In this document: piece after piece, positions 21,395-21,496 of the stretch
How the letters are laid out: the number at the start of each line of letters is the position of its first letter
Position numbering within the stretch: position 1 is the first letter of the stretch
NCBI RefSeq assembly: GCF_045037415.1
Contig: NZ_CP173438.1
Reading direction: 5' to 3' (one strand)
DNA length: 64,000 bases
From: Escherichia coli
GTDB taxonomy: Bacteria; Pseudomonadota; Gammaproteobacteria; Enterobacterales; Enterobacteriaceae
Program-made: the position numbers and the translations under genes
The notes under the pieces: model-generated
Told to the model about the DNA's origin: nothing
What the model saw: only the letters and a program-made list of their open reading frames with translations
Database searches by the model: none

Positions 21395-21496
21395 TTGTTA
21401 TCTCCTCTGTTTTGGTAGACAGTACCCGACACGGAACATTTAAAAAAATGAATGTTTTTACATTCTAAATTCGATATTTTCGATAGGTTTGGGGTT

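Follow-up and report, generated by a model that had tools for sequence, protein, structure and literature searches.

The region between the divergent genes eamB and yfiE raises the question of which of its nucleotides make up the operator of the LysR-type regulator YfiE. YfiE is among the remaining poorly characterised regulators of Escherichia coli; two in vivo binding data sets include it, and neither comes with a published motif. In the E. coli DNA analysed here (64,000 nucleotides of contig NZ_CP173438.1, the whole of which is called the window), the initial annotation pointed to an inverted repeat, GAATGT-N4-ACATTC, in the typical position of an autoregulatory or target site of such a regulator. 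On balance, we believe that this palindrome is one strain-specific face of a conserved YfiE operator of about 50 bp (21435-21485), which would lie within the control region common to eamB and yfiE. The left arm of the palindrome, GAATGT, is very probably part of that operator. The canonical LysR box, however, is the neighbouring direct repeat and not the palindrome.

Bases 20700-22500 of the window are identical to those in several complete E. coli genomes. The genes found here are, in order, grcA, eamB (on the minus strand), yfiE (on the plus strand) and srmB. The product of eamB is annotated as a cysteine/O-acetylserine exporter of the LysE family. YfiE carries the domains expected of a LysR-type regulator, HTH_1 (PF00126, E = 3.2e-17) and LysR_substrate (PF03466, E = 6.4e-45), and its closest solved relatives are CbbR, CatM, BenM and OxyR. 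The two genes diverge from the 102 bp (33% G+C) that separate the eamB GTG (21394) from the yfiE ATG (21497), and this region therefore lies where a LysR operator is expected, between the regulator gene and a divergent target gene. With these domains, an EamB of the LysE type and the divergent orientation of the pair, the description of the region as a divergent promoter of a LysR-type regulator and its target is well founded. The coordinates of its features are collected in Table 1.

Table 1. Features of the eamB-yfiE region, with positions in the window. Bits per position were computed on 22 clade representatives; identities refer to the alignment of 41 loci.
Feature	Position	Strand	Bits per position	Evidence or remark
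eamB (yfiK) CDS	20807-21394	-		GTG start 21394; ORF list, Pfam LysE E = 6.6e-15, RefSeq annotation of identical DNA
eamB ribosome-binding site AGAGGAGAT	21400-21408	-		Read off the sequence; TCTCC kept in the 41-locus alignment
Predicted eamB -10 hexamer TACTGT	21419-21424	-		TAnnnT positions T21424, A21423 and T21419 100% conserved (41 loci)
AACATT	21435-21440		0.84	Left partner of AACATT-N10-AATGTT (with 21451-21456); found in repeat search
A-tract (T-tract on the eamB strand)	21442-21448		1.84 (21442-21447)	Identity 90-100% at 21442-21447, 71% at 21448
Left arm GAATGT	21450-21455		1.83	Identity 83-100% per position
TTT after the left arm	21456-21458		1.53	
Right arm ACATTC (ATATTC in K-12)	21460-21465		0.76	Identity 49-85% per position
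TTCGATA-TT-TTCGATA	21470-21485			TTCGATA at 21470-21476 and 21479-21485, TT between; contains the T-N11-A box TCGA-N5-TCGA (21471-21483); proposed anchor (regulatory) site
First TTCGAT	21470-21475		1.34	
Second TTCGAT	21479-21484		1.68	
Linkers	21466-21469, 21476-21478, 21485-21493		0.58-0.78	
YfiE ChIP-exo interval	21483-21516			PMC8464067 supplement; 2713323-2713356 of U00096.2 = 2715301-2715334 of NC_000913.3
yfiE CDS, 293 aa, LysR-type regulator	21497-22378	+		ATG 21497 taken as the true start

The longest open reading frame in the yfiE frame opens at an ATG at 21452, and the second in-frame ATG is the one at 21497. The first of these does fall within the left arm of the palindrome, as had been noticed in the initial annotation, which preferred the downstream start. 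This preference is correct, because YfiE of K-12 is annotated as 293 amino acids with a start equivalent to 21497 and because the in-frame extension from 21452 is free of stop codons in only 15 of 41 loci, essentially those of Escherichia and Citrobacter.

The palindrome is present exactly as it had been described, with two perfect arms around TTTT (21456-21459), and the direct repeat that was said to follow it is there as well. Taken alone, the palindrome shows no excess over chance expectation. The window holds 22 perfect inverted repeats of the same 6+4+6 form, and 243 when spacers of 0-10 nt are allowed. At least one comparable inverted repeat was found in 25% of the shuffles of the AT-rich 102-bp intergenic region, and when the whole window was shuffled 100 times, 12 of the shuffles matched the exact pattern with one mismatch permitted.

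Its perfect symmetry is, in addition, allele-specific within E. coli. Over 21420-21500, an 81-mer that covers the palindrome, 2185 of 5379 E. coli genomes match the window exactly; exact matches to the K-12 allele were found in 2415 of 5339 (about 45%). In K-12 MG1655 the right arm is ATATTC, which is complementary to the left arm at 5 of 6 positions, and A21468 is replaced by G. E. coli is dimorphic at 21461 and 21468, with ACATTC...A in the window allele and ATATTC...G in the K-12 allele. By these counts, well under half of the E. coli genomes have the perfect palindrome.

A search with YfiE in one genome per species returned 43 loci, in 40 of which a divergent eamB homologue lies about 100 bp from the yfiE homologue. 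The pair is kept in Escherichia, Citrobacter, Klebsiella, Kluyvera, Cedecea, Yersinia, Serratia, Rahnella, Symbiopectobacterium, Providencia, Aeromonas and Vibrio. In K. pneumoniae, its neighbours are the orthologues of b0215 and b0219 instead of srmB and grcA (orthologue table, PMC3415461); given this different chromosomal place, yfiE-eamB moves as a two-gene module. From the eamB ribosome-binding site as far as 21489, the alignment of 41 loci has hardly any gaps, and nearly all of the variation in length falls between 21494 and the yfiE ATG. The cis-elements are thus phased to eamB and its promoter, and not to yfiE.

The most conserved element of the region is GAATGT together with the TTT that follows it. 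The left arm is nearly invariant over the 41 loci, which cover Enterobacterales, Aeromonas and Vibrio, whereas the right arm is conserved at the level of the linkers. GAATGT-N4-ACATTC is perfect only in Escherichia and Cedecea neteri, and in the group of Serratia, Rahnella and Symbiopectobacterium the complementarity of the arms goes down to 1-4 of 6 pairs. In several loci from Serratia, Rahnella and related genera (L032, L033, L035, L036 and L037), a second GAATG in direct orientation stands in place of the right arm (GAATG-N4-GAATG); in S. marcescens the equivalent of 21450-21465 reads GAATAT...GAATAC. The partner of the GAATGT half-site thus differs in orientation from clade to clade. The left arm is therefore a functional element, and no selection on the palindromic symmetry can be detected. 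Conservation does not extend to the palindrome as a whole, the right arm of which differs even in K-12.

The behaviour of the right arm also bears on a reading in which the inverted repeat forms a hairpin in RNA or DNA, such as a weak minus-strand terminator that is followed by U7. A 6-bp hairpin folds at -5.1 to -5.2 kcal/mol, with a z of about -2.3 to -2.5, and on the minus strand of 21440-21465 the hairpin is followed by AUUUUUUU, which gives it a terminator-like shape. However, the stem contains only two G-C pairs and falls short of an intrinsic terminator. The terminator scan found no intrinsic terminator in the region, and the hairpin had no match in Rfam. Besides, the right arm is poorly conserved, and no compensatory changes were seen in it. 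The hairpin is probably not even transcribed, because it lies upstream of both predicted start sites. We consider this reading close to refuted. The T run in AUUUUUUU coincides with the conserved tract located at -35 in the predicted eamB promoter.

In the standard LysR-type operator, a high-affinity regulatory site with a T-N11-A dyad lies at about -65, two less symmetric activation sites follow downstream of it and extend to the -35 region, and upon induction the second dimer slides between the two activation sites (PMC11495319). The palindrome is out of this register, since it is an even dyad of 16 bp with T-N8-A as its symmetric pair, and its right arm is not conserved. A T-N11-A dyad is found instead within the direct repeat, at TCGA-N5-TCGA. 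In this box T21471, A21474, G21482 and A21483 are 100% conserved over the 41 loci, and T21480 and T21484 reach 98%. The register typical of LysR boxes is thus found in the neighbouring direct repeat, in which T21471 and A21483 are invariant, and not in the palindrome.

The position of this box was judged relative to eamB. We predict a start site of eamB near 21412, because the TAnnnT pattern is the signature of a -10 hexamer. The inner positions of this pattern vary, and at -14 there is a G (C21426 on the plus strand) with 93% conservation. Where the -35 element would lie, the invariant T-tract is found, which makes a poor -35 element, and the promoter scan found no consensus sigma-70-like promoter in the region. 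Such a lack would be expected if the eamB promoter is activator-dependent. In the Cappable-seq supplement, there was no match for an eamB or yfiE start site at the expected coordinates. Relative to the predicted start, the centre of the box (21477) lies at -65, that of the palindrome at -45.5, and the left arm extends from -38 to -43. With the start site placed in this way, the geometry of the region appears to match the published scheme closely (PMC11495319). On the other side, 14 nt separate the end of the box from the yfiE ATG, and the box must therefore overlap the yfiE promoter. Overlap between the box of a regulator and the regulator's own promoter is the usual basis of negative autoregulation.

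According to published ChIP-exo data, YfiE is present at the intergenic region in vivo. Four YfiE sites were reported by ChIP-exo in glucose M9 (Gao et al. 2021, PMC8464067), and the yfiE/eamB peak, with a signal-to-noise ratio of 12.5, is the top one of the four; it was not flagged as RNA-polymerase-bound. We deduced that the listed coordinates refer to U00096.2, because only then do those of the other three sites fit the named neighbour genes, and the sequence of the interval was located in the window accordingly. Its centre is the yfiE ATG, off any conserved motif, and it shares one base with the T-N11-A box. The published peak supports a YfiE site between yfiE and eamB, but the interval lies 17 nt away from the palindrome that was named as its site.

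A ChIP-seq compendium covered YfiE, and the BoltzNet model of its specificity failed (PMC12059191). CRISPRi knock-down of yfiE raises dhaK, dhaL and gldA and changes more than 300 genes, with no mention of eamB in that preprint (bioRxiv 10.64898/2025.12.20.695731). In our literature search, we found no paper that defines a YfiE operator, no published YfiE motif and no paper in which eamB expression was shown to depend on YfiE.

The other three ChIP-exo sites were compared with the footprint. TGAATGTT was picked from the phylogenetic footprint and not from the ChIP sites, and copies of it lie at a distance of 2 bp from the dhaK-dhaR interval and of 59 bp from that at yffQ; its background is about 3 occurrences in 88 kb. 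The dhaK-dhaR site also contains the 9-mer ATGAATGTT, identical to that of the yfiE region, and AACATA-N10-AATGTT at the same spacing. The TTCGAT box is absent from the dhaK-dhaR site, and the arrangement there is AACAT-N12-ATGTT instead of GAATGT-N4-ACATTC. In an ungapped comparison by windows, the similarity of the intergenic region to these three sites was not above that of shuffled controls, and the only features that stood out were TGAATGTT and the AACAT-N12-ATGTT spacing. The dhaK-dhaR interval is itself centred exactly on a perfect 8-3-8 palindrome, ATGTTTCAtagTGAAACAT (L002 2946-2990, which is NC_000913.3 1250945-1250989 in the dhaK-dhaR intergenic region). ATGAATGTT begins one base past the end of ATGTTTCAtagTGAAACAT, and together they form AACATA-N10-AATGTT.

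It is possible that YfiE reads an overlapping dyad, AACATT-N10-AATGTT (21435-21456), and that the right arm ACATTC is incidental. We think this unlikely. The mean complementarity of this dyad is 4.56 of 6, compared to 4.10 of 6 for GAATGT-N4-ACATTC, and all six pairs are intact in Escherichia, in Citrobacter and in most members of the group of Serratia, Rahnella and Symbiopectobacterium. In two lineages its changes are compensated, namely in AATATT/AATATT of one E. coli locus (L005) and AATATTC/GAATATT of S. marcescens. The identical spacing recurs at the dhaK-dhaR site, and AACAT-N12-ATGTT is expected only 0.10 times per window. However, Aeromonas and Entomohabitans have lost the dyad (1-2 of 6 pairs) and retain the right-arm dyad at 3-5 of 6, and its AACATT arm is poorly conserved (Table 1). 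It is absent at the yffQ site and, at 22 bp, is wider than the usual site of a LysR-type dimer. A second copy of AACATT-N10-AATGTT at 29392-29413 has no reported YfiE peak. This copy is in the rseC-lepA spacer, and the -10-like sequence TGTAGAAT comes shortly after it.

The ChIP-exo interval leaves out the A-tract and the GAATGTTTT core, and this agrees with a different division of the region, in which these two elements are promoter architecture (an UP-like or -35 element for yfiE, and the -35 T-tract for eamB) and the contacts of YfiE are limited to the T-N11-A box and to the DNA beneath the interval. The yfiE promoter must indeed fall within about 50 bp upstream of 21497. AAAAAAATG fits AAAAAARNR, which was reportedly given as the proximal UP-element consensus by Estrem and colleagues in 1999. 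On the other hand, GAATGT and TGTTTT would make very poor -35 hexamers, and the promoter scan returned no promoter-like site. Near-invariance over nine consecutive bases exceeds what -35 or UP elements usually show, and TGAATGTT recurs next to two other YfiE peaks. We therefore regard a purely promoter-related role of the core as improbable.

The palindrome might also be the site of a different regulator that co-controls eamB, such as an ArgR-like reader of TGAAT, Lrp or another global factor. Its half-sites, TGAAT...ATTC, look like halves of the ARG box, the consensus of which is the 18-bp palindrome TGAAT-N4-ATTCA. The spacing from TGAAT to ATTC is 8 here and not 4, however, so the ARG box is not matched. 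Induction of eamB on phosphate starvation has been reported (PMC3465305), which would be in line with a second regulator. The poor conservation of the right arm counts against such a site, and our literature search found no paper that places another factor at the eamB promoter. We consider a site of this kind very improbable. The ARG, Fur, TyrR, IHF and Pho boxes were compared by eye, as consensus sequences, with the palindrome region and were rejected, since none of them fits in spacing.

For the conserved YfiE operator of about 50 bp, which we favour, the geometry suggests the following model. One YfiE dimer would anchor on TCGA-N5-TCGA, and because this box is 14 nt before the yfiE start codon, its occupancy would also repress yfiE. 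The second dimer of the tetramer would touch the invariant A6-GAATGTTTT core, and its partner half-site may be either the right arm ACATTC, with the centre at -45.5, or the upstream AACATT. In the latter case the dyad AACATT-N10-AATGTT would lie over the weak -35 T-tract, with its centre at -33.5 relative to the predicted start of eamB. A presumed co-inducer would shift the second dimer and thus allow RNA polymerase to use the weak eamB promoter, activation being the presumed direction of the regulation of eamB.

The partner that is kept depends on the clade, in that the Serratia group keeps the proximal AACATT and Aeromonas keeps the distal right arm. In a bolder form of the model, GAATGT would be common to the proximal AACATT-N10-AATGTT in the -35 region and the distal GAATGT-N4-ACATTC at -45, and the two dyads could underlie the pair of activation sites between which a sliding dimer switches. 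Through the same element at dhaK-dhaR, YfiE would then link the export of cysteine/O-acetylserine with dihydroxyacetone metabolism. We consider this extension unlikely. In any case, the footprint yields an operator that can be tested by mutation, made up of the A6-GAATGTTTT core, the T-N11-A box and the predicted eamB promoter. It might be used for engineering eamB expression in cysteine production, or for a YfiE-based sensor. Apart from that, this is an ordinary LysR-type control region.

Compared with the classic LysR-type operators (BenM, CbnR, OccR and DntR; PMC11495319), the region is alike in its divergent regulator/target promoter and in its invariant T-N11-A dyad, which lies at the predicted -65 and overlaps the promoter region of the regulator itself. 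It is also alike in the less symmetric conserved DNA at -35 to -53, in its weak target promoter, and in the presence of the cognate regulator at the intergenic region in vivo, as the published ChIP-exo peak indicates for YfiE. Unlike the classic operators, it has its top conservation in the A6-GAATGTTTT core at the activation-site position, and not in the T-N11-A box. The core, moreover, has two alternative partners (at N4 and N10), neither of which is in the T-N11-A register.

Among E. coli regulators of the same family, PunR (YdhB) at punC and YnfL at ynfM have the same 'divergent peak' evidence for a regulator and a transporter as YfiE (PMC8464067). PunR, unlike YfiE, was followed up functionally. 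In LysG-lysE of Corynebacterium glutamicum and ArgP-argO of E. coli, a LysR-type regulator senses the exported substrate and switches on an exporter of the LysE superfamily. YfiE differs from both in that it also binds at dhaK-dhaR and that its knock-down changes more than 300 genes. The gene argP is not adjacent to argO, in contrast to yfiE and eamB, which are neighbours. In this respect the locus resembles LysG-lysE, with a LysE-superfamily exporter beside a divergent LysR-type regulator, and the yfiE-eamB pair is kept as such a module in 40 loci.
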